DNA from: an uncultured virus (IMG/VR IMGVR_UViG_2061766007_000680)
Lineage: Duplodnaviria; Heunggongvirae; Uroviricota; Caudoviricetes
Direction: 5' to 3' (one strand)
Virus record (IMG/VR): IMGVR_UViG_2061766007_000680
DNA length: 64,000 nucleotides
Positions 17,925 to 51,611 of the stretch are shown here, piece by piece. Each line of letters begins with the position of its first letter. Position 1 is the stretch's first letter. The position numbers and the translations under genes are program-made. The notes beneath the pieces were generated by a model. That model saw only the letters and a list, made by a program, of their open reading frames with translations. It did no database searches and was not told the origin of the DNA.

Positions 17925-18125
17925 ATGGAAGAAAAAATTACTGCTTGGGTAGCAAGGGATGAAGAAGGTGGGTTGTATCTATATAAATGTCAGCCTAATA
18001 AAGCAGAAGGTTTTTGGACAGATTTCGGAGTTAGTATGCCAATAGATATATTTCTTTTTCCGCAAGTCAAATGGGAAGATGAAGAACCTACAAAAGTAGA
18101 ATTAACAATTAAAATTTATGAGTAA
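17925..18125 (+). CDS. Small phage protein (AWVARD...LFPQVKWEDEEPT); degenerate copy at about 16718-16911
   Basis: Shared C-terminal DNA and protein sequence. Confidence 0.75.
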   Translation: MEEKITAWVARDEEGGLYLYKCQPNKAEGFWTDFGVSMPIDIFLFPQVKWEDEEPTKVELTIKIYE

Positions 18126-18398
18126 TATGAAAAGAAATACACCAAAATATGATCCAGAAGATATTCTAAGGGCGATTAAAGCAGAAGGCTTATGCGCATA
18201 TTGTTATGGATTTAAAACACCAACTTGTATTTGGGTAGTAACAGACGGAATGGAAAAAGATGAAATTTGGGATAAATTTCCTTCACCATTAAAAGGTTAT
18301 GAGCAAGCATTCTGGGATAATAATAAGTTAATGGAAGTTACTTACTTTTTATTAGACAGAAGTTGTGGCGATTAACAGTTAACAATTAAAATTTGTGA

Positions 18399-18869
18399 GT
18401 GATTATGAAAACAAAAATTATTCCGTTTGACTTGGAAACGGCAAAGAAAATCCAAGCAGGAGAGATTGATGGAAAAATAAAGACAAGATGCGGATATACT
18501 GCAAGAATCCTGTGTACTGATCTAGTGCAAGCGCAACCTATTCTGGCAGCGTTTGCCACACACGAATTGGAGTCTGTATCGCAATACACGAAAAGAGGTT
18601 GCTTTTATATTAATGGAAAATCGCACGAATACGACCTCATTCTTGAAGTACCAGACAACGAGCCGCAGTTTAAGCCGTTTGATAAGGTGCTGGTGAGATA
18701 TCCAGATAAGACAGAATTGTGGGTATCTAAAGACATATGGTTACCAGGCATTTTTCAATATAAAAGTGTTAATTCCAATTTATATTTCGTTAGCGGAAAA
18801 GCTTATCGGTATTGCATTCCATACGAAGGTAATGAACACTTAGTAGGTACAACTAATAATCCCGAATAG
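18399..18869 (+). CDS. Minimal family A protein with no internal modules
   Basis: Family motifs. Confidence 0.9.
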   Translation: MIMKTKIIPFDLETAKKIQAGEIDGKIKTRCGYTARILCTDLVQAQPILAAFATHELESVSQYTKRGCFYINGKSHEYDLILEVPDNEPQFKPFDKVLVRYPDKTELWVSKDIWLPGIFQYKSVNSNLYFVSGKAYRYCIPYEGNEHLVGTTNNPE

Positions 18870-18871
18870 TT

Positions 18872-19216
18872 ATGAAACAGTTACAAAGCAATTTTACAAC
18901 TCCAGAGCAGTCGAATCGGCTGTTGGAATTAGGGTTGTCTGCGTGGACTGCTGATATTATGTTTGATAAAAATCGCAGAAGGTACGAGTTAATTGAAACC
19001 GAAGATGAGAGTTTAGCAGAAACACAAAGAACTCTGTTTTATAATGGTGGTGCAATACCTCATTGGTCGGTTGGTCGGCTGATTGAATTGATGCTTATCT
19101 GTTGCAGTGATGATATGGTATTTTGGAGAGGAAATCCTGTTATGGATTCGCTTTATCACGATGTCACTTGCCAATTACAAAACAACCTGTGGGACTTTTC
19201 AAAATTGGAGGACTAA
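18872..19216 (+). CDS. Family B protein
   Basis: NFTTPEQS.RLLELG, WSVGRLI, DFSKLED. Confidence 0.9.
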   Translation: MKQLQSNFTTPEQSNRLLELGLSAWTADIMFDKNRRRYELIETEDESLAETQRTLFYNGGAIPHWSVGRLIELMLICCSDDMVFWRGNPVMDSLYHDVTCQLQNNLWDFSKLED

Positions 19217-19346
19217 GATATGAAATTCACATTGTTACAAACCTATGATATTAACTCGATGACCATTAACACAAACACACCTACACGAAGATATATATCC
19301 ATTTTTCAGTGAAATGTTTATTTTTAAAGTTATTGGAACATTATAA

Positions 19347-19401
19347 TAGTCAGTTACTCGCCACTAAAGTATTGGGCTTCCACACAGTTTTGATCATGAA
19401 A
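19347..19401. repeat. 55-bp palindromic element, copy 2
   Basis: Near-identical to 1143-1197; its terminal ATG starts the next gene. Confidence 0.7.
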
Positions 19402-19836
19402 GAATTAATATTATTGACAATAGCAGCAATCTTATTTTGCTTATTCATATATGTTGTTGTTAGTGAAATAGATAGACGTAACAATAAAAAAGCAAATGAC
19501 AAAGAAATGTTTGAACTATTGGAACAGTGGCCTGAGATAAAAAGTATGAAATATCTTAACATCACTGAGTTCAGCAAGAATGTATTACTACTTAAAGAGA
19601 AATTCCTACCAAATACAGGCGGAATAATATGGAAAGAAAACCATTTAAAAGGTAAGTATTTCGAAATGGAGTTTTGGGGCGAAACAAGATTTTATCCCAG
19701 CACTAATACATTTGGGAAATATTATATACCTTCTTATTATATACAAGATGATAAACAAATGCAAATATATTACATTGATATTTTAACAAGATTAGGCGAT
19801 TATATGTATGCTGTATTCGTAACAAACAAAAATTGA
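19396..19836 (+). CDS. Membrane-anchored hypothetical protein
   Basis: N-terminal hydrophobic helix. Confidence 0.75.
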   Translation: MKELILLTIAAILFCLFIYVVVSEIDRRNNKKANDKEMFELLEQWPEIKSMKYLNITEFSKNVLLLKEKFLPNTGGIIWKENHLKGKYFEMEFWGETRFYPSTNTFGKYYIPSYYIQDDKQMQIYYIDILTRLGDYMYAVFVTNKN

Positions 19837-19942
19837 TCAAAAAAAAAATAAAAAAAAATTACTTTTTATTGATATTTTTTAAATTATTTGTATATTTATA
19901 ATTGAAAAAGAAAACAAAACTATTAAATTAACAGAGAATAAC

Positions 19943-20029
19943 ATGATGAACAAGTGTTTCAAATATTACGGATTGAAAGGCGGCTATTGGTTTAGACGTG
20001 CAACTTGTTCTATGTGTTCTGTTAACTAA
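19943..20029 (+). CDS. Putative attenuator leader peptide MMNKCFKYYGLKGGYWFRRATCSMCSVN
   Basis: 28-codon ORF after a TTTGTATATTTA motif; its codons match the downstream tRNA set. Confidence 0.75.
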   Translation: MMNKCFKYYGLKGGYWFRRATCSMCSVN

Positions 20030-20054
20030 GCAGTAGGTTAGTAAATATATACAA

Positions 20055-20109
20055 ATACCCTGGGTAGATGGAAACATAGAAACAAAATCTTCTCAGGGTA
20101 TCTTTTTAA
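20055..20109 (+). terminator. Terminator hairpin (20055-20069/20087-20101, then CTTTTT) with an alternative antiterminator (20005-20023/20067-20085)
   Basis: ataccctgggtagat / atcttctcagggtat; ttctatgt / acatagaa perfect core. Confidence 0.75.
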
Positions 20110-20112
20110 TAC

Positions 20113-20195
20113 TGGTGTGTATGCAAGTGGCCAACGCGAGCAGTCTCCAAAACTGTGGACGAAAGTCTTCGTGGGTTCGAATCCTACCGCACCTG
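20113..20195 (+). tRNA. tRNA-Trp(CCA) with long variable arm
   Basis: gcagt-CTCCAAA-actgt anticodon arm, GTTCGAAT T-loop, G73. Confidence 0.85.
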
Positions 20196-20209
20196 CAAAA
20201 AAATGAAAA

Positions 20210-20262
20210 TTTTTGCTCCAAAATTTTTATAGATCAAAAAAAAGTTGTATCTTTGCAGCAGA
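20210..20262 (+). promoter_or_regulatory. Bacteroidota-type promoter (TATCTTTG at 20248) inside the tRNA cluster
   Basis: Same extended motif as at 2047 and 35720. Confidence 0.75.
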
Positions 20263-20273
20263 TTTTAAAAAAC

Positions 20274-20358
20274 GGGCAGTTGGTCGAGTGGACGAAGGCG
20301 AGACTCTGCAAAAGTTTATGGGGAAACCCACACATTGGTTCGAATCCAATACTGCCCT
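20274..20358 (+). tRNA. tRNA-Cys(GCA) with long variable arm
   Basis: gggcagt/actgccc acceptor stem, CTGCAAA loop, U73, tggg-gaaa-ccca extra arm. Confidence 0.85.
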
Positions 20359-20387
20359 CAAAATAAATGAACATTGAAATAAATAAT

Positions 20388-20482
20388 GGGAAGATAACGT
20401 CGGTGGTCTGTAACACCACTCTGCTTTAACAAATTGGCGTATTGGACTTTGCAGTAGGGGGGTTCGAGTCTCTCTCTTCCCA
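20388..20482 (+). tRNA. Atypical tRNA-Tyr(GTA)-like gene (no D-stem, ~37-nt variable region)
   Basis: gggaaga/tcttccc acceptor stem, gtggt-CTGTAAC-accac arm, TTCGAGT loop, A73. Confidence 0.55.
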
Positions 20483-20483
20483 C

Positions 20484-20682
20484 AAAAATCATTCGATAGA
20501 TATTTAATGATATATTAAGGGTTCGAATCCCAATTGGGGGCTTGTCGACGAACTGGTATGTATCTTATATAACTATACTCAAAGTCCCTCGCATTTTCCG
20601 AGTGTTATATAAGTAAGGTCGATTGTTAAGTGTTTATTGTAAAATCTGCAATTAGAGCGCTATGATTGTATGAATGGTTTTT
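20484..20682 (+). ncRNA. Unidentified ~200-nt structured RNA candidate
   Basis: Closing helix 20484-20494/20672-20682; 10-bp perfect helix 20564-20573/20604-20613; isolated T-arm gggTTCGAATccc. Confidence 0.45.
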
Positions 20683-20747
20683 AAGCACAATGGCTAGTGC
20701 GTCGGCCTTCCAAGCCGAGGATGAGGGTTCGATTCCCTTTATCTACT
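20676..20747 (+). tRNA. tRNA-Gly(TCC) lacking a complementary 5' acceptor strand (pseudo- or split tRNA)
   Basis: Perfect D, anticodon (tcggc-CTTCCAA-gccga) and T arms; 3' strand tatctac is unmatched by ggttttt. Confidence 0.6.
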
Positions 20748-20758
20748 CAACAATTATC

Positions 20759-20832
20759 GGGGATGTGATGTAGTTGGTAAGTCATGCGGGTCTGAAAAAC
20801 CCGAAGCGGTCTCTTCGATGAGCCTGTCCCCA
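20759..20832 (+). tRNA. tRNA-Phe(GAA)
   Basis: ggggatg/tgtcccc acceptor stem, cgggt-CTGAAAA-acccg; irregular T-arm. Confidence 0.75.
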
Positions 20833-21139
20833 CTAAAAACTTTTTTTCTTGGTTACAAAACGGTTGTTAGATACGAAGGTGTAGATTATAACGAGGACGA
20901 AGTTAATAACATAAAAGAACTTGACTTTACAATAGAGAATTTAAGAGAAAATAAACTAAATGTGAATATCGGACAAGGCTTAGGCAGGTGATACTAAACC
21001 GCAATCAGGAGAAATAATCACTACTTAGATGAAAGAAGAGTAATCAAGTTTTAGCAAATGTGTATTGTTTCATTTTTACTGAATTGGTAAAGTAAACAGA
21101 CTGGTGGGACGCGAGTGGATTACTTTATGTTTTTAAAAT

Positions 21140-21212
21140 GCGTTAGTAGATCAATTGGTAGATCGGCACATTGCCATTGTGCAGGCTGGGGAATCGTACT
21201 CCCTCTAACGCT
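21140..21212 (+). tRNA. tRNA-Gly(GCC)
   Basis: gcgttag/ctaacgc, gcaca-TTGCCAT-tgtgc, U73; T-loop ATCGTAC. Confidence 0.85.
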
Positions 21213-21233
21213 CTGAAAATCAATAAATTATTC

Positions 21234-21311
21234 GCGGTATTGGTGTAGTTACAGGCGCACATCACTCCTCCAAAGTGAAGGCATGCACGGATGGGATCTC
21301 CGTATACCGCT
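21234..21311 (+). tRNA. tRNA-Gly(TCC), atypical (C33, T-loop TGGGATC)
   Basis: gcggtat/ataccgc, tcact-CCTCCAA-agtga, U73. Confidence 0.7.
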
Positions 21312-21415
21312 CAACGGCAGGTTTGCATTGGAATAAACGTGTGGAAAATCCACTGCCAATGTGATGAAATAAGAGTAAGACTGCACAGACCCGTAGAAGA
21401 GTCGGGTGAAAATAT

Positions 21416-21489
21416 TCTCTCGTAACTCAACTGCATAGAGTACAAATTTCCTAAATTTGGAGTTCCGAGTTGGAGTCTCGGCGGGAGAA
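21416..21489 (+). tRNA. tRNA-Arg(CCT)
   Basis: tctctcg/cgggaga, caaat-TTCCTAA-atttg. Confidence 0.85.
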
Positions 21490-21576
21490 CAAACGAACTG
21501 AAAATAAAAATATTTTTTCTTTAAAAACAGTACGTTTTTAATACTTAACAAGTATTTATTATAAAAGATAAATATT

Positions 21577-22197
21577 ATGGTTAAGTATAGTAAAGAGGAA
21601 TTAGAGGATTTAATTTTAAACAAAAAATTAAGTTATGTTGAAATAGGGAAGACGTGTGGTATATCTGGAGGTGGTGTAAAAAAGTTAGCCCTTAGATATG
21701 GAATAGAACTTCCTATAAGAAGGAAAATAAATGAGAAAGAAACTTTTGGGAAGGGCAGAACTAAATACGAAAAAGGAAATTGTATTTATTGTGGCAAAGA
21801 ATTTGTGAAATATCCAGGGAAAACAAATCTTTTCTGTTCAAATAGTTGCAGAAACAAATATAAAGACCAAGAATATTTAAATAAATGGAAAAAAGGAGAA
21901 GTTGATGCTACGACAAAAGGGTTTACAATTTATGAATGTGTTAGAAGATACATCTTTGAAAAAAACAATAATTGTTGTGAATCATGTGGAAAAGCATATG
22001 TGAATCCTTATACAAATAAAAGTATATTACAGATACATCACAAAGACGGCAATTGTTTAAATAACAAAGAAGAAAACCTACAATTATTGTGTCCAAATTG
22101 CCACGCAATGACAGAAAATTTTGGGAGCAGAAATAAAAACGGTAACAAAGAACGTACAAAATATTACGGAAAAGACAAAACAAGATATAATAAATGA
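21577..22197 (+). CDS. HNH endonuclease (putative homing endonuclease) with N-terminal HTH and Zn finger, inside the tRNA cluster
   Basis: CIYCGK..FCSNSC, CESCG, LQIHHKDGN..NN..ENLQLLCPNCH. Confidence 0.9.
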   Translation: MVKYSKEELEDLILNKKLSYVEIGKTCGISGGGVKKLALRYGIELPIRRKINEKETFGKGRTKYEKGNCIYCGKEFVKYPGKTNLFCSNSCRNKYKDQEYLNKWKKGEVDATTKGFTIYECVRRYIFEKNNNCCESCGKAYVNPYTNKSILQIHHKDGNCLNNKEENLQLLCPNCHAMTENFGSRNKNGNKERTKYYGKDKTRYNK

Positions 22198-22266
22198 CAA
22201 CGAAAAAGAAACATATGAAGAAACCGTAATCCCACAACTTAATGTTTGTGGGGTTAGTAAAACATT

Positions 22267-22337
22267 GCTCTGCAAGCATTAAGGTGATGCACCATCCTTT
22301 TAAGATGGGGAATTCGGGCCAGTACCGAGGCGGAGCA
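22267..22337 (+). tRNA. tRNA-Lys(TTT), atypical T-loop
   Basis: gctctgc/gcggagc, ccatc-CTTTTAA-gatgg; T-loop GCCAGTA. Confidence 0.7.
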
Positions 22338-22345
22338 CAATAAAT

Positions 22346-22419
22346 GACCCCGTAGTTTAATTGGCAAAACCCCATACTTTTAATATGCGAGAGTGCAAGT
22401 TCGAATCTTGTCGGAGTCA
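22346..22419 (+). tRNA. tRNA-Lys(TTT)
   Basis: cata-CTTTTAA-tatg arm, GTTCGAAT. Confidence 0.85.
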
Positions 22420-22426
22420 CAAATAA

Positions 22427-22498
22427 GCCCTTATAGGTTAACGGTTAGACTAATATACTCTTAATATATGGATCTTGGTTCGATTCCAAGTGGGGGCA
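22427..22498 (+). tRNA. tRNA-Lys(CTT)
   Basis: atata-CTCTTAA-tatat, GGTTCGATTCC. Confidence 0.9.
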
Positions 22499-22512
22499 CT
22501 GGAAGAATATAC

Positions 22513-22588
22513 GCCTCGGTATGCAAATAGGTAAAGCAGCCAAACTCAAAATTTGGTGATTCTGTGGATTCGACTTCCACCTGGGGTA
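22513..22588 (+). tRNA. tRNA-Leu(CAA) with short variable region
   Basis: ccaaa-CTCAAAA-tttgg, A73, only ~7 nt of variable loop. Confidence 0.85.
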
Positions 22589-22598
22589 CAATATAATT

Positions 22599-22705
22599 TA
22601 CGCAGTCCATCGCGCCATTAAAGAGTGAGGAAGTTCAGGACACTTATTTGGGAGTGAAAGTCCAAGTATATATGGAATTAGGTACAGAATCCTGGCTATT
22701 ACGTG
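22599..22705 (+). ncRNA. Miniature RNase P RNA-like element (~107 nt)
   Basis: GAGGAAGTTCAGGAC and ACAGAATCCTGGCT resemble CR-I and CR-V and form a P4 helix with bulged U; P1- and P2-like pairings present. Confidence 0.6.
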
Positions 22706-22773
22706 TATTTTAAATCTCAGAAAAATCTGGGATTTTTTTGTATATTTATATTGAAACAAATGAGATTTAATAT

Positions 22774-25700
22774 TATGGCAAAATTAATTAATGTATATAA
22801 GGGTATGATCCTTACTCCAGAACAGGAGAGAGAGATGTTTGTTGAAACATTCAAGTATCTTGATAAGAAGTTAGAAAAATTTCTTTCAAGTAAGTATTTT
22901 GAAAAACTCTATGAAGAAGATGAGTTTATTGGTGCTGCAGTAGAAGATGCAGGAACTAGAGTTGCGCAAATGGTTGATTATTGCGAAAGAGGTTTTTGGG
23001 ATTAATAGTTATGTATATGGATACAAAAGTTAAGGTTGACACAAGTAGTAGTTTCCTAAAAAGAGTATTTGGAGTTACGTCATGGGAAAAATCCGTCAAT
23101 CCTATTTACGCAACATTCAAGGGCGGATTAGGAAAATACAATGATGACATGTCAGAATGGGATTATTTCTGTTTATGGGGTCATTTTCGTTTTTGTTACG
23201 ACAAAAAAAATTTAATTGACGGATGGACACATATTGGTTTACATGGATATAGAAATGGCTATACCTATACGCCAGTAAAAAGATTACTATGGCAATTTGA
23301 TTATCATTTTGCATTTAATAAGAAATGGCCGTTTATCAAGATTGGTTTCCACAGGATATGGCCGTTGTATGACAAAGAAAAATTTTGATCAGTATGAGTT
23401 TAAGTAGTGAGGATTGGAAACAGTACTACGACAGGTGGGCTGAAAGGATTTCTAACTTTAAGGATGTAGATGGCTTGTTTAAGAAAGTCATTGATAAATA
23501 CGGTAATAAAATGTCTGGAAAAAAATTTACCATATTTGATGTCTTATTTGAGTATGCTAAACGAAAAGGTGTTAAGGTTAGCGATGTTGATGAAGACGTT
23601 GAATTTATTGTGGATTTTATTGTAGAAGAATATGAAGTTAACAACTATAGAGTAGCATTATTTTATAGTGAAAATCCAATTATAATGATTAGTTATGGGA
23701 AAAAGACAACCGAATAAAAAATATCTTTTAGATAAACTAAAAGAGTTGGCACGGGAAGGAATGGATTTTCCTTCACATGATTCAAGTGCAGTTACGCATG
23801 TTGTACCAACAAAAAAAATTGTTAAGAATACAAGAATACTTGTTAATTCTTGTGATGATGACGAGTTAGAGAATTGGGATATTACTTTGTATGTAAATGG
23901 CTCAGTACTATTGTGTTATTACAAGAAAAACAGTATTAACTCTATGATAAATGTGGCTGAAAATGGAGTATCTGGCATTTTTGCATATAGGAATATATAT
24001 GAGCCAATGGAAGTTGGTATAAATGAAATTAATAAAATAAATGAAATATTTAAATTAGCAAAAGAACATGGCAAGTAAAGCACCAAGTACAAAGGCGTTA
24101 TTAAAGATATTCTGGATGTTTGACAAACATGGTTTAATTAAAGAAGATTTATGTTTTGATCCAGAGCATTTTATGGAAACCGTGATAAGAGAAAAATGGA
24201 ATAATTGGAACGAAGAAAAAAGATGTTATAAATATGAGTTGGAAGGGAGAGATTAAACAATTTGCCTGTGTTGATATAGGCGGTAAAACAGTACTTGTAT
24301 TCAGAGAGAAATATGTTAGAAAGGCTACTGCCCATAAAGTTCTGGATCTATTTCTGAACAATTATGAGAAATTAGATGACGAAAATAAGAAAACATATGA
24401 CTTTTTGATTATTGAGAAGAAAGGTCGCATTACTGCTAGTTACAAAAAGGGAAATCCAGAAAATGCGCCAGTTGTTTGGCTAAAGAACGTAGAGTTTAAA
24501 GATATCACTATAGCCGATACAACACAAGTAATAACAAATAAATATGACAAACCAATAATGGTTGACGCTAATAGTTTTACAGTACCATTTAATTCAGATT
24601 TTTACAATGAAAAATAAACGAGACTACGGAAGGTATTTAACACTTAAGTTTCCTGATTTAGAATCACCAAGCAAGAAAAGATTTTTTAACTCTCACGGAA
24701 AAGAGATTACAAAGCAGGAGGCAAAACGATTAAAAGAAATTGATGAGGTGATTGAGAAGTTACTAGCCGAAAAGGCTAAGATTGATGGGGAATAATTCAT
24801 TTTATTCCCCTAAAATTTTTATATTCGGAAAAATTATTGTATCTTTGTAGCGTAATGTGAAATTATAACATTATGGAAGAAAAAAAATTATGTGATAAAG
24901 AACGCAAAGTTTGGAAATCCTACGAAGACTACTCAAAGGAAAGGATTAACGAACTAGTTGATAGACGTAACAAATGGACGAAGAGAGTAAGAGATTTCTT
25001 TGTCTATGGTATTAGTTGGACCACACGTGAAAAATGGCGTAATATGAAATGGTATCTTCGAAACATTCGTAAGTTTTTACATTTGGCTAAGGAATGGCGC
25101 CCTTGGGATTACCGTTATCAAGTTGATCTTTTTAAATTCGGTTTGACCGAATTGGCTGATTATATTGACAAACGTGGCAACGAGGAAGATGTATCTCGCA
25201 CCAAGAAAATTGCAGCGATTACTAAGTTAATTGCTGAATTAGATCGTGATTATGAACATGAGGTATATGAGAAGTATCATCGTCACGAACAATTTGGGAA
25301 AGATGTTAAAAAAATTGTTGAATATGAAGATGGCTCAATTTCATTTAGTTTCAACGAAGACGAGGAGACTAAAAAGAAAAATGAGATTTACAATAAAGCA
25401 CTTATAAAAGCCAGAAAAGAGCATTACAACACCATATTCAAACTCATCCTCGGACAAGATAATGAGAAGTTATGGAAAGAAGTTGATAAAAAGTTTGCTG
25501 AACTTCCAGAAGAAGAGCAGAAAGATCCTCATCAGACAAAGCATTATAAAATTTATGCTCAATTGTTTGATGGCAGTGGAATTGAAGGTTGGTGGGATTA
25601 ATTATGGATATTATTAGTTATAACACATATAAAAAAAGATATAACCCACAGATTTATTATGTCCGTGATGGAATAAAAGGGTGGGCAAAGCAAACTGTAA

Positions 25701-28700
25701 CGCCTACATTAGATCATGATGGGTGGAAACAGTGCATATACGACTATGAATATGGCATGTTTGAAAACGAGAAGCCAAAAGATATGGCTATCCGTTTATT
25801 AAAAGAAACATGGGGCGAAGAATGGTTAAATAATAAGAAATTCGTCTATTATCCGTATTATTATAACGGCATGAATAGTATGATGGATGCTTTATATGTA
25901 TTTTACAAAGAATTATAACATGAAGATAGGAATTAAACATACGTTAGAATCAATATGGTTGTGTATGAAGTATCCATTCCTGTACCCAAGAAATAGGTGG
26001 AACGGTTTTCATTACAACAACTGGGCGTTTGAAGAGAAGATTAACGGGAAACGTAATTTTTGGCCAAAGCCAATGATTGAAAAAGAGGGGTGGCTCCAAA
26101 AAGGGTTTATATTGAATATTGACCAAGAAACTTTTAAAAGCACAAGAGATGTTAAGAATTGGTGGTATGCATTACTCTTCTATGTAGGTAATTTTATTTA
26201 CAAATATCCAATGCAATGGATACACTGTATACCAACATATACAGAGTGGGATGCTATGGATGGTATGCCAGGTTGGAAGAAGACTTTTGGTGATCAAATG
26301 CTTAAGGAGGTAAAGGCACAACTTAAGAAAGACAAATGCTTATACTCATGGCGAATTACCGACGTTAAAGAGAAGTGGGGTTCACTGCGTTTGTATAGTA
26401 ATTTTGCTTCTGATGAGTTGCAGAAGATTATTAACAAATATGATGATTTATCATATGAAACATGTATTCGTTGCGGTGAGCCAGCGAAAATAATTACAGA
26501 TGGTTATGTATTACCGTACTGCGAACATTGTTGGGCAAACATGGAGCATCCACACAAAATAGGTATGTACAAGATAGATGGCAAGAAATGGGTGGATGCT
26601 GATCAAATTATAATTAGTGACAAAAAATTACAATAATTATGGAGAAAAAATTGGTATTAAAACATGAAAACGGCAATTTTATTGAATATGAGCCAGTTTC
26701 ATTTGACTATGAGATAACGCATATTGATCAACCAGAGTATTATGACAACGGCGAGTTTGCTGGGTATAAAACAGAGCATTTTTCAGAAATTCCTATTAGT
26801 CAAATATGGAAAGTTTTTTCATCTTCTACATTTAGAAATCAAATTGAAATTACTGAGTTAACATGTAAAATGTTACCAGATAAGGATTATATTTATTATA
26901 CTGATTTAATCAAGATGTTTACATCAAAAACACCTTTACGGTGTGAAGGCGAATTAACAGTCATTGATGAGGATACTAATACACTTTTCACACAAGCAAC
27001 ACTGCTTGGCTGTGTAGCACTGTCTAAGGTTGATAATAAGATTAGTTTTAGGTTTGATTTTATGAAAACATATATATAATACAGTAAAAATAAGCAATAA
27101 AACATGGAAACTTTTTATAGAACATTATTAGAGAAAGCAAAACCTAATGGAAAAGGATGTTTAACTGTTAATATTAATGAAGTTTTAGACGCGTTAGAAA
27201 AAAATGGCTATAAACGTTATAAAACAAAATTAGGTGAAACTCTTTCAAAAAAGGAATTAACGACTGAAGAACTTGCTGAGATTTTCGCACAAGAGGATAT
27301 AATTATCGATGCAAACGCTAAAGAACTATCAAAAACAATTGATTCCTACATCCTTGAAAAAATGAAACAACAAAAAAAATAAACGTAAAAATAATTTTTA
27401 TTTTAGATTTGTAAAATGAATAATTCATCAGAACAAATAAAAAGTTGCTCAATACCCCAAGAAAAAAATCATACAGACGGCCGTTATAGTGAAGAGAATG
27501 TAATATGTTACGGTTGTCACTATCACAAAAATGGAAGTTGTAATAAGCCAGCACTGATGATTGCATGCAGTAAGTATTACCCACACCCAACAACTATTTC
27601 ACAATGGATAAAATACATATTCCATAGATGTAAAAATTTGTATTGGTATTACCATCACAAGTGTTCCGAGAACCTCAATTGGCTTAAGTATAAATGCAAA
27701 TCAGCATCAATACCATCTCCAATTGGGCCAGGAAGTAAAATATACTATCAATGGATTGTATCAGATGATAATGAAACACACATATTGAAGATAGAAAAAC
27801 TATGGGTCGGATGTGGTAATAATAGCGAGAAAAATAAATTCTACATAATGGCAAAAACTAATGAGGGGCAATCAACACTTAATTCGTTGTTGGAATATAA
27901 AAAAATAATAAAAATAGAAAAATGAAGAAAAAATTATGGAAGAAATAATGGAATATAGTGGCTATATAGATTTAGATAGCAAAGAAACTTTAGCAATTAA
28001 AAATCTTGAAAATTCTAAAAGTGATTACCGAAACAAATATTTGTCAAAAATATTTAATACGAATATACATACTGATGTTGAATATTTCTTTGATTACTCA
28101 AAAGCATTGGCTTTATTTAAGGACTATGAAGAGAAATATGGGCAACCTAGTGAATTGGATAAAAATAAATTAACATATCATTATTGGGAAAATGGTGGTG
28201 TTGATAGAATATCTGATATTGAAAAAGCAAAAATTCAAGTTGATGATAATGGGACTTTTCTCGCACGTATTATACTTGAAGCACATGGCAAAAAAACGTT
28301 TGGATGGGGAAATATTGCTAGGTATGATGTAGAATTATTTAAATTTTACGAAAACAGACCAAATTTAGTATTAACAAATGTGTTTACAAACACAGACTTA
28401 TTATATGACTTTTTAAGTAGACTAATTGAATGTATTGTTAATATTAATAAACATGAATTAATTGAAAGAATCAATTACAATACAGAAAAGATAGTCACCA
28501 TTAGTGAAGAAATAAAAAACATGTCTAATATTTTAGAAACACCTGTAAAATAAAAAATATTATGGATAATAAAATTGAAATTCCTAGTTTTCTGCCAGTT
28601 GGCGAAGATTGTGGTGTTAATTCTGACAACCACGAAGAAATTGGTTATTTATTGCGAATTATGATAGAAACACCTTTGAAAAATACGTGTTATTTAATGA

Positions 28701-31490: not shown

Positions 31491-32315
31491 ATGAATAAAG
31501 AAGAATTAATAGAGGTATTTCAAGATACCGAGAAACATTGTAAAAGCAAGGATGCAATAGGGAACGCAAGTAAAATGTGCGTTGAGAGAACTCGTATTCT
31601 CGATTTTACAGCAAAAGAGAAAAAACACATCCATGGTAATTTAATAGTTAAAATAACAAACCTTGACACGCTGACCGCAGCAAGTAAATATGCAAAAGAT
31701 GATGATAACTTTGTTGCTGTATTGAATTTCGCTTCTGCTACTAATCCAGGAGGTGGTGTAACAAAAGGCAGTACTGCACAGGAAGAATGCTTATGTAGGT
31801 GCTCAACTCTTTATCCAGCACTAAACCAAAAGAAATGTTTTGATGAGTATTACAATATAAACAGGAATAGTGGTGATAACCGTGGTAGTGATAAAATCAT
31901 TTATACCAGAGATGTATTGGTATTCAAAGATGGCAACTACGAGATGTTAGAACCAAAAGATATGTTCTACGTTGACGTAATAACTTGTGCAGCCCCAAAT
32001 CTTAGGGAAAAACCTAAAAATGCATATAATCCAGGTGCCAATAGCGAAGCATTAAAACTAACAGATGAAGAACTATATGATATTCATGTAAGACGGGCAA
32101 GGAACATATTACATACAGCAAGAGAAAACGAAATAACTCATCTTATACTTGGTGCGTTTGGATGCGGTGCATTTAAGAATAATCCAGAGGTAGTGGCTAA
32201 TGCATATAAGGAAGTTATTCCAGAATATGAAACTGATTTTGATGTTATCGAATTTGCTATCATTGGCAAAAATGATAACTATGATATTTTCAAAAGAATA
32301 TTGTTAGATAAGTAA
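31491..32315 (+). CDS. TIGR02452/DUF2263-like bacterial PARG-type macrodomain protein (ADP-ribose glycohydrolase)
   Basis: LNFASATNPGGG...GSTAQEECLCRCSTL, VITCAAP, LILGAFGCGAF.N. Confidence 0.9.
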   Translation: MNKEELIEVFQDTEKHCKSKDAIGNASKMCVERTRILDFTAKEKKHIHGNLIVKITNLDTLTAASKYAKDDDNFVAVLNFASATNPGGGVTKGSTAQEECLCRCSTLYPALNQKKCFDEYYNINRNSGDNRGSDKIIYTRDVLVFKDGNYEMLEPKDMFYVDVITCAAPNLREKPKNAYNPGANSEALKLTDEELYDIHVRRARNILHTARENEITHLILGAFGCGAFKNNPEVVANAYKEVIPEYETDFDVIEFAIIGKNDNYDIFKRILLDK

Positions 32316-48974: not shown

Positions 48975-49562
48975 ATGGAAGAGAAAAAAACAAAAGTTTT
49001 ACTGGTCATTGATATGCAGAATGACTTCATCGACGGCTCTCTAGGAAGCGAGGCCGCTCAGCGTATAGTGCCAAATGTAGTTGATAAGATTAAAAACTTC
49101 GATGGTGATTTAATCATTTTAACACAGGACACTCACTACGAAGGCTATCTTAATACGAAAGAGGGTCAAAAACTTCCTGTGGTACATTGCGTATATAAAA
49201 CACATGGATGGGAAATTAACGAAGATGTTCTTCGTGCTGTAAATGAATCTAACAAACGTACAGTCTACGTTTTAAAACCAACATTCGGTTCTACATTGCC
49301 AATGCCAGATTTAGAGTGTTACAATGATTTGGCTGGTGAAATCATTTCATTATTCACTAATGATAATTTTAATGAGGCAGAAATAGAACTCGTTGGACTG
49401 GATACTGATATATGCGTTATCTCTAATGCATTGATATTAAAGTCATGGTTCTATGATGATGCAGAGATAACCGTAGACAGTAAATGTTGTGCAGGCGTAA
49501 CACCTGAGAAACATGAGGCCGCTTTGGAGGTAATGAGAAGTTGTCAAATTAATGTAATTTAA
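48975..49562 (+). CDS. pncA: Nicotinamidase (isochorismatase-family cysteine hydrolase)
   Basis: VIDMQNDF, D.H, HC...T.G, K..F, GLDTDICV; next to nadE and pncB. Confidence 0.85.
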   Translation: MEEKKTKVLLVIDMQNDFIDGSLGSEAAQRIVPNVVDKIKNFDGDLIILTQDTHYEGYLNTKEGQKLPVVHCVYKTHGWEINEDVLRAVNESNKRTVYVLKPTFGSTLPMPDLECYNDLAGEIISLFTNDNFNEAEIELVGLDTDICVISNALILKSWFYDDAEITVDSKCCAGVTPEKHEAALEVMRSCQINVI

Positions 49563-49623: not shown

Positions 49624-50427
49624 ATGACAGTTAATAGCGTAACAAATAAATGGGTATTTGACCCAGTAAAAGCAAAAGATAACATCATAAACGGTATTCG
49701 CAATTGGTTTGATGAGAATTTTAATGGTGGAAATGCGGTTCTTGGAATTTCAGGTGGAAAAGATTCTACCGTTGTTGCCTATCTCTTATGTGAAGCAATT
49801 GGAAAAGATAGAGTTATTGGTGTTACAATGCCTAACGGAGTACAAAAAGATATTAATGATTCAAATAGGGTATGTGAGTTGCTTGGAATAAAGAAATTAG
49901 AAATTAACATCCAAGAGTCATACAATAGTATCATCAATGCAGTTTACGAATACGTAAATGTAACTGATCAAACGAAATTTAATCTGCCGCCTAGATTGCG
50001 CATGACAACTTTGTTTGCTGTTGCACAATCAATGAATGGCGTTGTTATTAACACAGGTAATCTATCCGAATACATGTTAGGATGGTTCACATTTGGTTCT
50101 GATACGTGTGGTAGTTATGCACCCATTATGGATTATACTGTCTCTGAAGTATATCTAATTGGCGAGGTTTTAGGAGTTCCAAATGATTTATTATATAAAA
50201 CACCTAGTGATGGCTTGTGTGGCAAATCAGATGAGGAAAAGTTTGGTTTCCCTTATTCTGTATGTGATGAACTTATTAGAACAGGCTTATGTGACGACAA
50301 TAACATTAAAGCTAAAATCATGAAAATGAATAATAGTAGTGCATTTAAACGTATTAAGATAAAATATCCACATAGTCATTACCCCAATTGGTTTGGTTTG
50401 TTGGATAACATTGAGGAGATGAAATAA
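49624..50427 (+). CDS. nadE: NH3-dependent NAD+ synthetase
   Basis: LGISGGKDS, N...RLRM, TGNLSE...G.FT, PSDGL...DE. Confidence 0.92.
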   Translation: MTVNSVTNKWVFDPVKAKDNIINGIRNWFDENFNGGNAVLGISGGKDSTVVAYLLCEAIGKDRVIGVTMPNGVQKDINDSNRVCELLGIKKLEINIQESYNSIINAVYEYVNVTDQTKFNLPPRLRMTTLFAVAQSMNGVVINTGNLSEYMLGWFTFGSDTCGSYAPIMDYTVSEVYLIGEVLGVPNDLLYKTPSDGLCGKSDEEKFGFPYSVCDELIRTGLCDDNNIKAKIMKMNNSSAFKRIKIKYPHSHYPNWFGLLDNIEEMK

Positions 50428-50447
50428 TAATTAATAAATTTAATAAT

Positions 50448-51611
50448 ATGGTAATAAGTATTTTAGATAACGACCTTTATAAATTTTCTATGGGATATGC
50501 CTATATGAAACTCTACCCAGACGCTGAAGGTAAATTTGAGTTTAATGACCGAAATAAGTTGGTATTCACTGACTTTATGGTTGAGCGTTTGAAAGAAGAG
50601 TTTGCAAAACTCTCTTCCATGTCACTCACGGATGATGAGAAGAATTGGGCTATTGAAACTATGCCGTACATTCCCGCTTTCTATTGGGAGTGGCTTAGAA
50701 GTTTCCGTTTTGAACCAAGCAAAATTCACGTATATCTTGATGAGAATAGGCATCTGCATATTGATGTTACCGACAAATTATACAAGGTAACTCTTTACGA
50801 GGTTCCCATTTTGGCTATTGTGTCTGAGACAGTTAACAGATCTCACATAGTTAACAAAGAATATGTGTTGGACCGCTTGGAGGAGAAAATTAAGTTATCG
50901 AACGAGAACAAACTTTATTTCTCTGAGTTCGGAACACGCCGCCGTTTCAGTTATGAGGTACAGGATTTGGTTGTTAAATATCTGAAAAACAACGCACGTT
51001 ATTGCACAGGTACATCCAACGTACATCTTGCAATGAAGTACGACATGAAACCTATCGGTACTGTGGCCCATGAGTGGGTTATGTTCCACGGATCGAACTT
51101 TGGCTATCGTCGTGCTAACCATGAGGCTTATGAGGCTTGGGTTAAAGTATTTGATGGTGCGCTAGGTATTGCATTGACAGATACTTACGGCCTTGACGCT
51201 TTCTTGAATAACTTCTCTTTGAAGCAGGCTAAACTGTTTGATGGCGTTCGTCAGGATTCAGGTGATGAGCGTGACTTCGTATATCGAGTTGTTGAACGTT
51301 ACAAAGAACTTGGTGTTAACCCGATGTTGAAGACCATCATCTTCTCTAATGCACTTGACTTCCCGAAATATAAGGAGATTGCCGAGTTCTGTGAAGGTAA
51401 AATTGGTATGTGCGCTGCAGGTATTGGTACTAACCTAACTAATGACACTGGTTTTAAACCTTTGAACATAGTCATGAAGTTAATGCAGTGCCGCATGAAT
51501 AGCAAACAGGAGTGGCTTAATTGTATCAAAATTTCTGACGATGCAGGTAAGGTTATGGGTGACGCACGAGAGGTAGAGGTTGCTTTACATGAATTAGGTA
51601 TTGAATATTAG
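50448..51611 (+). CDS. pncB: Nicotinate phosphoribosyltransferase
   Basis: DNDLYK, EFGTRRR, GTSN, GTVAHE, RQDSG, GIGT.L, IKISD. Confidence 0.95.
   Translation: MVISILDNDLYKFSMGYAYMKLYPDAEGKFEFNDRNKLVFTDFMVERLKEEFAKLSSMSLTDDEKNWAIETMPYIPAFYWEWLRSFRFEPSKIHVYLDENRHLHIDVTDKLYKVTLYEVPILAIVSETVNRSHIVNKEYVLDRLEEKIKLSNENKLYFSEFGTRRRFSYEVQDLVVKYLKNNARYCTGTSNVHLAMKYDMKPIGTVAHEWVMFHGSNFGYRRANHEAYEAWVKVFDGALGIALTDTYGLDAFLNNFSLKQAKLFDGVRQDSGDERDFVYRVVERYKELGVNPMLKTIIFSNALDFPKYKEIAEFCEGKIGMCAAGIGTNLTNDTGFKPLNIVMKLMQCRMNSKQEWLNCIKISDDAGKVMGDAREVEVALHELGIEY

Follow-up and report, generated by a model that had tools for sequence, protein, structure and literature searches.

RNase P RNA-like element behind the last tRNA gene

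The window analysed here is a stretch of 64,000 nucleotides (nt) from an uncultured virus of the Caudoviricetes (IMG/VR record IMGVR_UViG_2061766007_000680), in which ARAGORN predicted eight tRNA genes, all on the plus strand. The last tRNA of the operon is tRNA-Leu(CAA) (22513-22589, +; 47.8 bits with the Rfam tRNA model), whose CCA end is not encoded, and the operon is closed by an intrinsic-terminator-like hairpin (22712-22735) with a T run (together 22712-22742, +). The gap between the two is filled by an element of 109 nt (22598-22706, +), which is separated by 8 nt from the end of tRNA-Leu (22589) and by 5 nt from the terminator. As described below, model R2 and alignment A2 indicate that this element is an internally deleted homologue of a family of phage RNase P RNAs without the specificity domain (S-domain). 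The parent family, 166-168 nt in length, is a more important result than the deleted copy itself.

A first-pass annotation, made from the sequence alone, had read the element as RNase P RNA-like, and all the motif strings that it named were found in place. As read directly in 21400-23400, GAGGAAGTTCAGGAC occupies 22627-22641 and ACAGAATCCTGGCT occupies 22684-22697. The pairs tacgcagt (22599-22606) and attacgtg (22698-22705), ccat (22607-22610) and atgg (22672-22675), and tatttgg (22645-22651) and ccaagta (22662-22668) are present as well. The P4-like pairing of AG(U)UCAGGA with UCCUGGCU was also borne out, with a single bulged U at 22634.

The motifs by themselves made a weak case. Allowing up to three mismatches, the 15-mer occurred 3 times in the window against 0.82 expected, and 6 of 100 shuffles reached 3 occurrences. 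The fold of 22590-22745 (156 nt) was not unusually stable (z = -1.16; 26 of 200 shuffles equal). At gathering thresholds, the Rfam matches of the window were tRNAs only, with RNase P absent, and the search with the Rfam RNase P families that had been proposed as a check gave no match to 22200-22900 (701 bases) at E <= 10. The missing Rfam match of the window copy and a fold no more stable than the shuffles would suit an RNase P likeness that arose by chance in an operon spacer; this idea is contradicted by four homologues, two of them matching RF00373 at E of about 1e-12, and by the match of model R2 to the element (E 1.6e-19), and its probability is negligible. The best non-tRNA Rfam match, the SpF41 sRNA (24.3 bits, E 0.21), was taken as a chance match to a common terminator plus a GAAUCC stretch. 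A promoter-like site at 22570-22597, inside tRNA-Leu, was not counted, such sites numbering 13 against 11.8 in shuffles.

Homologues and architecture

Four homologues of 166-168 nt were found in the tRNA arrays of large phage contigs in IMG/VR, which derive from the rumen and other metagenomes. The closest IMG/VR record, G001, was reached via its RtcB, which is 97% identical to that of the window. Since this contig of 121 kilobases (kb) was rated only 32% complete by CheckV, the phages are very large. In G001, the same tRNA-Lys/Lys/Leu block is followed by a copy of 168 nt, and the terminator is kept with one change in its loop. Pattern scans of IMG/VR added copies of 167 nt on a 184-kb contig (G002), 167 nt on a 380-kb contig (G003) and 166 nt on a 17-kb contig (L075). 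The five copies, those of the window and of the four relatives, all lie within, beside or at the end of tRNA arrays; five related records hold one copy each, and the window holds one.

A stretch of 174 nt of G001 matched RF00373 (archaeal RNase P) over the full model (1-288) with 45 bits (E 1.2e-11 in the local search, 7.5e-13 in the record search). The alignment skips 129 S-domain positions at the P5 loop, and it is identical letter for letter at GAGGAA, AAGUCCAAGUAU (J5/15-P15), GGUAGGACG (L15-P15), AAUG (J15/2) and ACAGAA. G002 matched the same model with 44.4 bits (E 1.7e-12). Furthermore, a covariance model, R2, was built from the four phage relatives of 166-168 nt with the window excluded. 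In the 64-kb window it gave a single match, at 22598-22706, with 89.1 bits (E 1.6e-19) and two modules skipped. Since homologues exist and R2 matches, the element is more than a chance likeness. Judged from these sequence matches, it very probably descends from a phage-encoded RNase P RNA without S-domain.

Between the window and G001, the identity was 68-80% for coding DNA, 91-100% for tRNAs, and, for the element, 94% in the 3' part and 80% across the P3 gap. G002 and G003 share with the window only a few coding stretches at 66-72% similarity, and the RNA is nonetheless kept. Because these two phages keep the RNA despite such sparse coding similarity, the comparison indicates that the RNA family is under purifying selection.

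The architecture was read from alignment A2 (168 columns), which comprised the window, G001, G002, G003 and L075, and in which P1, P2, the base of P3, P4 (as a pseudoknot), P5, P15 and P16 were placed. Standard pairs were found in 95% of the 180 pair cells, compared with 30-50% when the 3' partners were slid by 1-3 columns. In the window copy, P1 is the closing helix, and P2 and P3 lie between P1 and P4. In the pair check of A2, the 5' strand of P1 (22598-22606, +) pairs with its 3' strand (22698-22706, +), with a conserved C x A mismatch at 22603/22701. The 5' strand of P2, CCAUC (22607-22611, +), contributes CCAU to the pairing with AUGG (22672-22675). P2 thus has 4 base pairs (bp) in the window and 5 in three of the four relatives, L075 having one mismatch; the closing pair is C x U (C22611/U22671) in the window only and C-G in the relatives. 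P3 is a stub of 3 bp (22613-22627, +; CGC 22613-22615 with GUG 22625-22627) with a 9-nt loop, and is about 12 nt longer in the IMG/VR relatives.

CR-I, which comprises J3/4 and the 5' strand of P4 (consensus GAGGAAAGUCC...), is present as GAGGAAGUUCAGGAC at 22627-22641. It consists of J3/4 GAGGAA and the P4 5' strand AGUUCAGGA (22632-22640) with the bulged U22634 (together 22627-22640, +); the stretch is invariant in five of five sequences, and in G001 it was aligned to GAGGAAAgUCC of RF00373. The P5 stub follows (22641-22656, +; CACU 22641-22644 with AGUG 22653-22656), and its 8-nt loop UAUUUGGG is the site of S-domain insertion according to the RF00373 alignment of the relative. This loop replaces the S-domain (P7-P12, CR-II/CR-III) in the window copy as well as in the four relatives. 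Behind P5, the window retains J5/15 AAA (22657-22659), the P15 5' strand GUCC (22660-22663), which is orphaned by the absence of its partner GGAC/AGAC, and the 5' side of L15, AAGUAUA (together 22657-22670, +). The P15 3' strand, the GGU of L15 and P16 are deleted. Beyond the deletion junction (22670-22672, +), the 3' strand of P2, AUGG (22672-22675), leads into J2/4 (22676-22689), which ends with the CR-V-like ACAGAA (22684-22689), and then into the 3' strand of P4, UCCUGGCU (22690-22697; together 22672-22697, +). CR-V, that is, J2/4 ACAGAA followed by the 3' strands of P4 and P1, is therefore present as ACAGAAUCCUGGCU (22684-22697) and then AUUACGUGU; the corresponding region of G001 was aligned to ACAGAAGGgGGcUUA of RF00373, and L075 reads ACUGAA. 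P4 can form 8 pairs plus the bulged U22634 and crosses P2 as a pseudoknot, and all 8 pairs are invariant in five of five sequences.

Two-sided changes were observed in 5 pairs, 4 of the 9 in P1 and 1 in P15, the latter being C-G in G001 and the window lineage and U-A in G002, G003 and L075. P16 occurs as GGGGG/CCUCC and GGAGG/CCUCC in the relatives, and as GGUGG/CCACC and GGUAG/CUACC in the contig ends of two further metagenome runs. The RNase P architecture was assigned because the Rfam alignment, the motif identities and the covariation in P1 and P16 support it. The first-pass annotation had thus judged the RNase P likeness correctly, as the homologues match RF00373 and R2 matches the window; its P1, P2 and P4 agree with the RF00373 alignment of the homologues, and the loss of the S-domain that it supposed is seen in the 8-nt P5 loop and in the 129 model positions skipped in the relative. 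The covariation among phage homologues that it called for was obtained in P1 (4 of 9 pairs) but not in P4, which does not vary.

Several results weigh against the assigned descent and structure, in addition to the missing Rfam match of the window copy. All Rfam scores of the relatives lie below the gathering threshold (84 for RF00373), the G003 copy was not reported by the Rfam RNase P models, and RF00010 (bacterial type A) gave no match at E <= 10 in the five related records. P4, P5 and the base of P3 are invariant, and hence are without support from covariation. The covariation in P15 is a single event that fits an alternative pairing of columns 91/117 as well. Moreover, RNAalifold, run without pseudoknots, recovers P1 only and otherwise gives a different fold. 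This nested fold was not adopted, as it cannot represent the P2/P4 pseudoknot and shows no covariation outside P1.

Other routes to relatives gave little. Among INPHARED phages, no match was obtained by distant blastn of 22500-22780, by megablast of 18000-28000 or by tblastn of a protein of 519 amino acids (aa), and RtcB found distant matches only (<40% identity). No relatives were found via the 242-aa downstream protein, and of the 47 loci of a T-arm anchor scan, only that of G001 itself contained the element by blastn. The first viral pattern, with a gap of 20-50, gave 0 matches because the gap of the relatives is longer. Chance matches in the viral pattern scans amounted to 3 of 4 (L059-L061), 2 of 5 (L064, L066) and 6 of 11 (L070, L071, L074, L077-L079). 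The four loci of the metagenome pattern scan (L001-L004) all lay in unrelated coding-looking sequence without other parts of the element, and the scans of genome contigs gave 0 and then 2 chance matches (Nostoc, Paraburkholderia).

A separate element of 127 nt at L072:1473-1599 (+) (IMGVR_UViG_3300035698_031643) shares the 5' half of the family only, namely the P2/P3 junction AUCGCGCC, P3 as CCAC[UUCG]GUGG, and GAGGAAGUUCAGGACAC. It then differs by 42 additional nt in P5, by CAA at J5/15, by ACAGA and by a 3' strand of P4 that matches poorly. This element (record G005) matched model R1 with 14.1 bits (E 0.0042 for the locus, 0.018 for the record), and a search with the Rfam RNase P families at E <= 10 gave nothing for it. 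Either a second short variant of great divergence or a decayed copy would account for it.

Internal deletion and fate of the short copy

In A2, the window lacks columns 20-31 (distal P3) and columns 86-132, and the latter are gapped in the window only. They correspond to about 47 nt that comprise P16, the 3' side of L15, the 3' strand of P15 and J15/2. This module is present in four of four IMG/VR homologues and is nearly invariant among these full-length copies. According to the available text of one paper, the GGU of L15 pairs with the CCA end of the tRNA in type A and type T enzymes (PMC13462272).

Contigs of four other gut metagenome runs from four studies (X4, X8, X9 and X11) were aligned to 22200-22900, with partial cover in X4, X8 and X11. 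All four runs carry extra sequence at the deletion site: X8 has 48 letters between 22670 and 22672, X9 has 52 between 22671 and 22675, and in X4 and X11 the contigs run on behind 22670 as loose ends that lead into P16. Including the IMG/VR relatives, the extra sequence amounts to 47-52 nt (P16, L15 GGU, P15 3' strand and J15/2). The X8 and X9 contigs align with 22600-22670 without gaps, and thus share the short P3. Their alignments also continue past the terminator into the next gene, where the similarity to G001 is lost; X8 differs there at 14 of 198 letters, and X9 at 6 of 117. Since the P3 stub is shared and the downstream alignment continues, X8 and X9 are closer relatives than G001, and the stub is common to at least three strains. 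The junction pattern of the short form was found in 0 IMG/VR contigs.

Because the closer relatives X8 and X9 still carry the module, the loss of P15/P16 appears from these alignments to be recent, strain-specific and private to the sampled population. The 109-nt copy is, by the same comparison, a recent internal deletion of a phage RNase P RNA of 157-168 nt. This does not agree with the design of about 107 nt, restricted to the catalytic core, that had been proposed at first: the small size results from the deletion of about 47 nt, and the module is kept in all four other runs and all four IMG/VR homologues. It would also be conceivable that the assembly produced the short form by error or caught a minor deletion variant of the sampled population, the real phage having the 157-168-nt form, as the short form occurs in the runs of one sample only, which is maybe the source of the window. 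However, X1 and X2, two runs of one bovine gut sample with separate Logan assemblies, hold 100% of the sampled 31-mers of 21400-23400 including the junction, although they are not independent of the source; we consider either case highly improbable.

The deletion also accounts for the hairpin tatttgg/ccaagta of the first-pass annotation, which is not a helix of the family. In the homologues, these letters belong to the P5 loop, J5/15 and the 5' strand of P15, and the hairpin may form in the window copy only because the partner strand of P15 is deleted. In an energy evaluation of the window copy, this alternative hairpin (UAUUUGG/CCAAGUA) reached -4.9 kcal/mol, compared with -2.2 for P5. On this model it would bury J5/15.

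The family keeps the catalytic domain (P1-P5, J5/15, P15/L15/P16, J15/2 and J2/4), with the 8-nt P5 loop in place of the S-domain. We infer the transcription, processing, protein partner and activity of the RNA as follows. The element would be co-transcribed with the tRNAs, its 5' end would be freed by the 3' processing of tRNA-Leu, and the 3' end of the transcript would be set by the terminator 5 nt downstream. Since no RnpA-like gene was found, the partner is assumed to be the RNase P protein of the host, which the family would borrow, and with which it may trim the 5' leaders of phage pre-tRNAs without reading the tRNA elbow. Such an elbow-blind phage enzyme could help phage tRNAs with unusual T-loops. 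The related proposal that the loss of the S-domain fits non-canonical T-loops of the neighbouring tRNAs holds for 2 of the 8 annotated tRNAs and one unannotated fold, but not for the three tRNAs adjacent to the element (Lys, Lys and Leu), whose T-loops are the canonical UUCGA. The gene of the window has in addition lost about 47 nt, and it shares the P3 stub with its closest relatives.

Because the module is kept almost letter for letter in every other copy, its loss speaks for a loss-of-function or strongly weakened allele. The window copy is probably a deletion allele that is catalytically crippled or dead, and we regard this as likelier than a working 109-nt ribozyme. Some observations do not fit easily with a dead allele and its assumed history. 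The 109 nt are retained without decay, X8 and X9 differing by 2 letters in 22600-22670 and by none listed in 22672-22706. The universally conserved core motifs are intact throughout, namely GAGGAA, P4 including the bulged U, ACAGAA and J5/15. This identity of the retained part neither proves nor excludes selection, because the divergence of about 5-7% from X8 and X9 predicts few neutral changes. A gene for an RNase P protein was found neither among the 116 window proteins nor in any of the five related records, all of which are fragments. Furthermore, the window represents 64 kb of a genome of maybe several hundred kb, and a second intact copy elsewhere is possible. In yeast mitochondria, according to the available text of PMC3790967, RNase P RNAs of about 150 nt function with a large protein although they keep hardly more than P1 and P4. 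The loss of P15/L15 is therefore not proof of death, because these mitochondrial RNAs work.

The intact core, unchanged relative to the relatives, would also suit a working ultra-minimal RNase P ribozyme of 109 nt. In such an RNA, P1-P5, J3/4, J2/4 and J5/15 would make up the active site, a host or unseen phage protein would bind the substrate, and L15/P16 would be dispensable as the tRNA genes encode no CCA. With a tRNA-Leu that has no encoded CCA, the pairing of CCA with L15 may matter less at 5' cleavage; the lineage had already tolerated the shrinkage of P3, as the stub in X8 and X9 shows, and the gene is still placed between tRNA and terminator. In the available text of two papers, the mitochondrial RNAs of about 150 nt keep only P1, P4, CR-I and CR-V (PMC3790967), and an isolated catalytic domain cleaves in vitro, with lower efficiency than the full RNA (PMC5839562). 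However, all other copies keep the deleted module nearly unchanged, which suggests a need for it, and the short form is known from one sample only. P2 is weakened, and the competing hairpin can trap J5/15. Moreover, the mitochondrial precedents depend on a large protein dedicated to them and are inactive as RNA alone, as far as the available text of PMC3790967 goes. We regard such a ribozyme as possible but unlikely. A functional 109-nt RNase P consisting of P1, P2, the P3 stub, P4, the capped P5 and J5/15, which acts with the host protein and reads neither elbow nor CCA, is likewise rated unlikely.

The bacterial RNase P protein contacts the region of P2, P3, P4 and J2/4, and these parts are kept in the window copy, which sits with the tRNAs and has its own terminator. 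The RNA could thus be non-catalytic, as a decoy for the host RNase P protein or as another small stable RNA of the tRNA operon, like the two stable non-tRNA RNAs in the tRNA cluster of phage T4. Nevertheless, a phage that itself encodes at least 8 tRNAs needs RNase P, and sequestering the protein would hurt the phage. Since the relatives of 167 nt keep the full features of the catalytic domain, including the CCA-binding GGU, catalysis is pointed to as the selected function of the family. A non-catalytic role is accordingly rated improbable, well below that of a working ribozyme.

Known RNase P RNAs and genome context

The family resembles the archaeal type T RNA in its catalytic domain of P1-P5 and P15/L15/P16, in the pairing of CCA to L15 and in a drastically reduced S-domain, and the relatives score best on RF00373. 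However, type T RNAs still have a small S-domain that includes a T-loop motif, according to the available text of PMC13462272, whereas the phage family has an 8-nt loop and a length of 166-168 nt. The window copy further lacks the P15 3' strand, L15, P16 and J15/2, and the gene lies in a phage tRNA operon with a bacterial-style terminator, not on an archaeal chromosome. Archaeal M and T types are described as the smallest in the available text of the P finder paper (PMC7191817). The form of 166-168 nt without S-domain would be smaller than the minimal enzyme of archaeal type T, and the parent family would rank below all other known non-organellar RNase P RNAs in size, and it is virus-encoded.

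Compared with bacterial type A (E. coli M1 RNA, RF00010), the element has in common the CR-I/CR-V-like motifs, the bulged U of P4, the P1/P2/P3 layout and J5/15, and the relatives also have the GGU of L15. In contrast, the phage family is without P18, P6/P17 and the S-domain, and measures 109 or 166-168 nt compared with about 377 nt. Among 46 tRNA-bearing phage records, three matched RF00010 at E <= 0.001, two of them substantially and none at the gathering score (100). The RNAs of 200 and 228 nt at L087:1509-1696 (-) and L088 (G028:C1:193430-193657) matched RF00010 end to end, with 61 and 50.4 bits; they are unannotated and belong to unrelated complete phages of 184 kb and 197 kb with terminal repeats. 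The family is shorter than these two RNAs (166-168 nt) and matches the archaeal model only, whereas location in tRNA arrays and a reduced S-domain are common to all. R2 also matched the 200-nt RNA of an unrelated complete phage (28.5 bits, E 8.9e-5), which ties the family at the sequence level to other reduced phage RNase P RNAs. Because none of these RNAs reaches the Rfam gathering score, routine annotation misses all such genes.

Among known RNAs, the yeast mitochondrial RNase P RNA (rnpB/RPM1; the smallest of about 150 nt in Saccharomycopsis fibuligera) comes closest to what the window copy retains, being likewise reduced to hardly more than P1 and P4 (CR-I/CR-V). As described in the available text of PMC3790967, these RNAs are organellar and very A/U-rich, and have a dedicated large protein and no reported RNA-alone activity. 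The window copy is smaller, also keeps P2, the P3 stub, P5 and J5/15, and is a recent deletion of a longer, conserved form; it is the only copy seen without the P15/P16 module. As a catalytic domain stripped to about the mitochondrial content, it bears on the long-standing question of whether P15/L15/P16 are needed when a protein cofactor is present. If the 109-nt RNA is functional, no natural RNase P RNA seen so far would be smaller, and it would be a natural experiment defining the minimal catalytic core; if it is dead, it documents the fast decay of accessory RNA genes in phage populations.

To our knowledge, RNase P RNA is generally seen as a ribozyme common to all cells. A literature search, the supplementary tables of huge-phage surveys aside, found no description of a published phage- or virus-encoded RNase P RNA, and none is mentioned in the available text of a 2024 RNase P review (PMC11143913) or of the P finder paper (PMC7191817). 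The family would show that tRNA-rich phages also bring part of the tRNA-processing machinery.

The public runs that contain this stretch are gut metagenomes, mostly bovine, and the 20 runs listed include no RNA run. The long open reading frames of the window all lie on the plus strand, and most of their proteins were without a family in Pfam and PHROGs; those recognised were RtcB, NAPRTase, NAD synthase, a PARG-like domain, a Dam-type methylase, an HNH endonuclease and a glucosaminidase. The HNH endonuclease gene (21577-22197; PHROG 1271, E 9e-19) lies within the tRNA cluster, flanked by tRNA-Arg and the Lys/Lys/Leu block. In G001, tRNA-Arg(CCU) is about 90 nt from the Lys block, and the HNH insert appears to be absent.

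Several tRNAs of the cluster are unusual. The T-loops of tRNA-Gly(GCC) (21140-21213; AUCGUAC) and tRNA-Arg(CCU) (21416-21490; UUGGAGU) both depart from UUCRANY. The genes for tRNA-Trp(CCA) and tRNA-Cys(GCA) (20113-20196 and 20274-20359) measure 84 and 86 nt and have variable arms of about 12-13 nt, which is unusual for their identities, and the score of the tRNA-Trp(CCA) gene is as low as 34.8 bits. Between the HNH gene and tRNA-Lys, a cloverleaf-like fold at 22266-22338 (+) is unannotated, as it was missed by ARAGORN and Rfam. Its acceptor stem counts 7 bp, its anticodon loop reads CUUUUAA (UUU, Lys), and its T-loop, GCCAGUA, is non-canonical. The region of 148 nt around it is unusually stable (z = -3.95; 0 of 200 shuffles), a separate hairpin lies at 22227-22256, and the contigs of X4 and X9 cover the region with 8 other letters in about 390.

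A repeat of about 55-105 nt at about 20197-20272 and at 24788-24891 matches more than 30 sites of G001 on both strands, with 76-92% identity, and looks like a dispersed intergenic repeat of the phage group. Finally, an NAD salvage set (NAD synthase, NAPRTase and an isochorismatase/nicotinamidase-like protein) and a PARG-like protein are encoded at 49624-51611, 48975-49562 and 31491-32315, and are possible counter-measures against NAD-depleting or ADP-ribosylating host defences.

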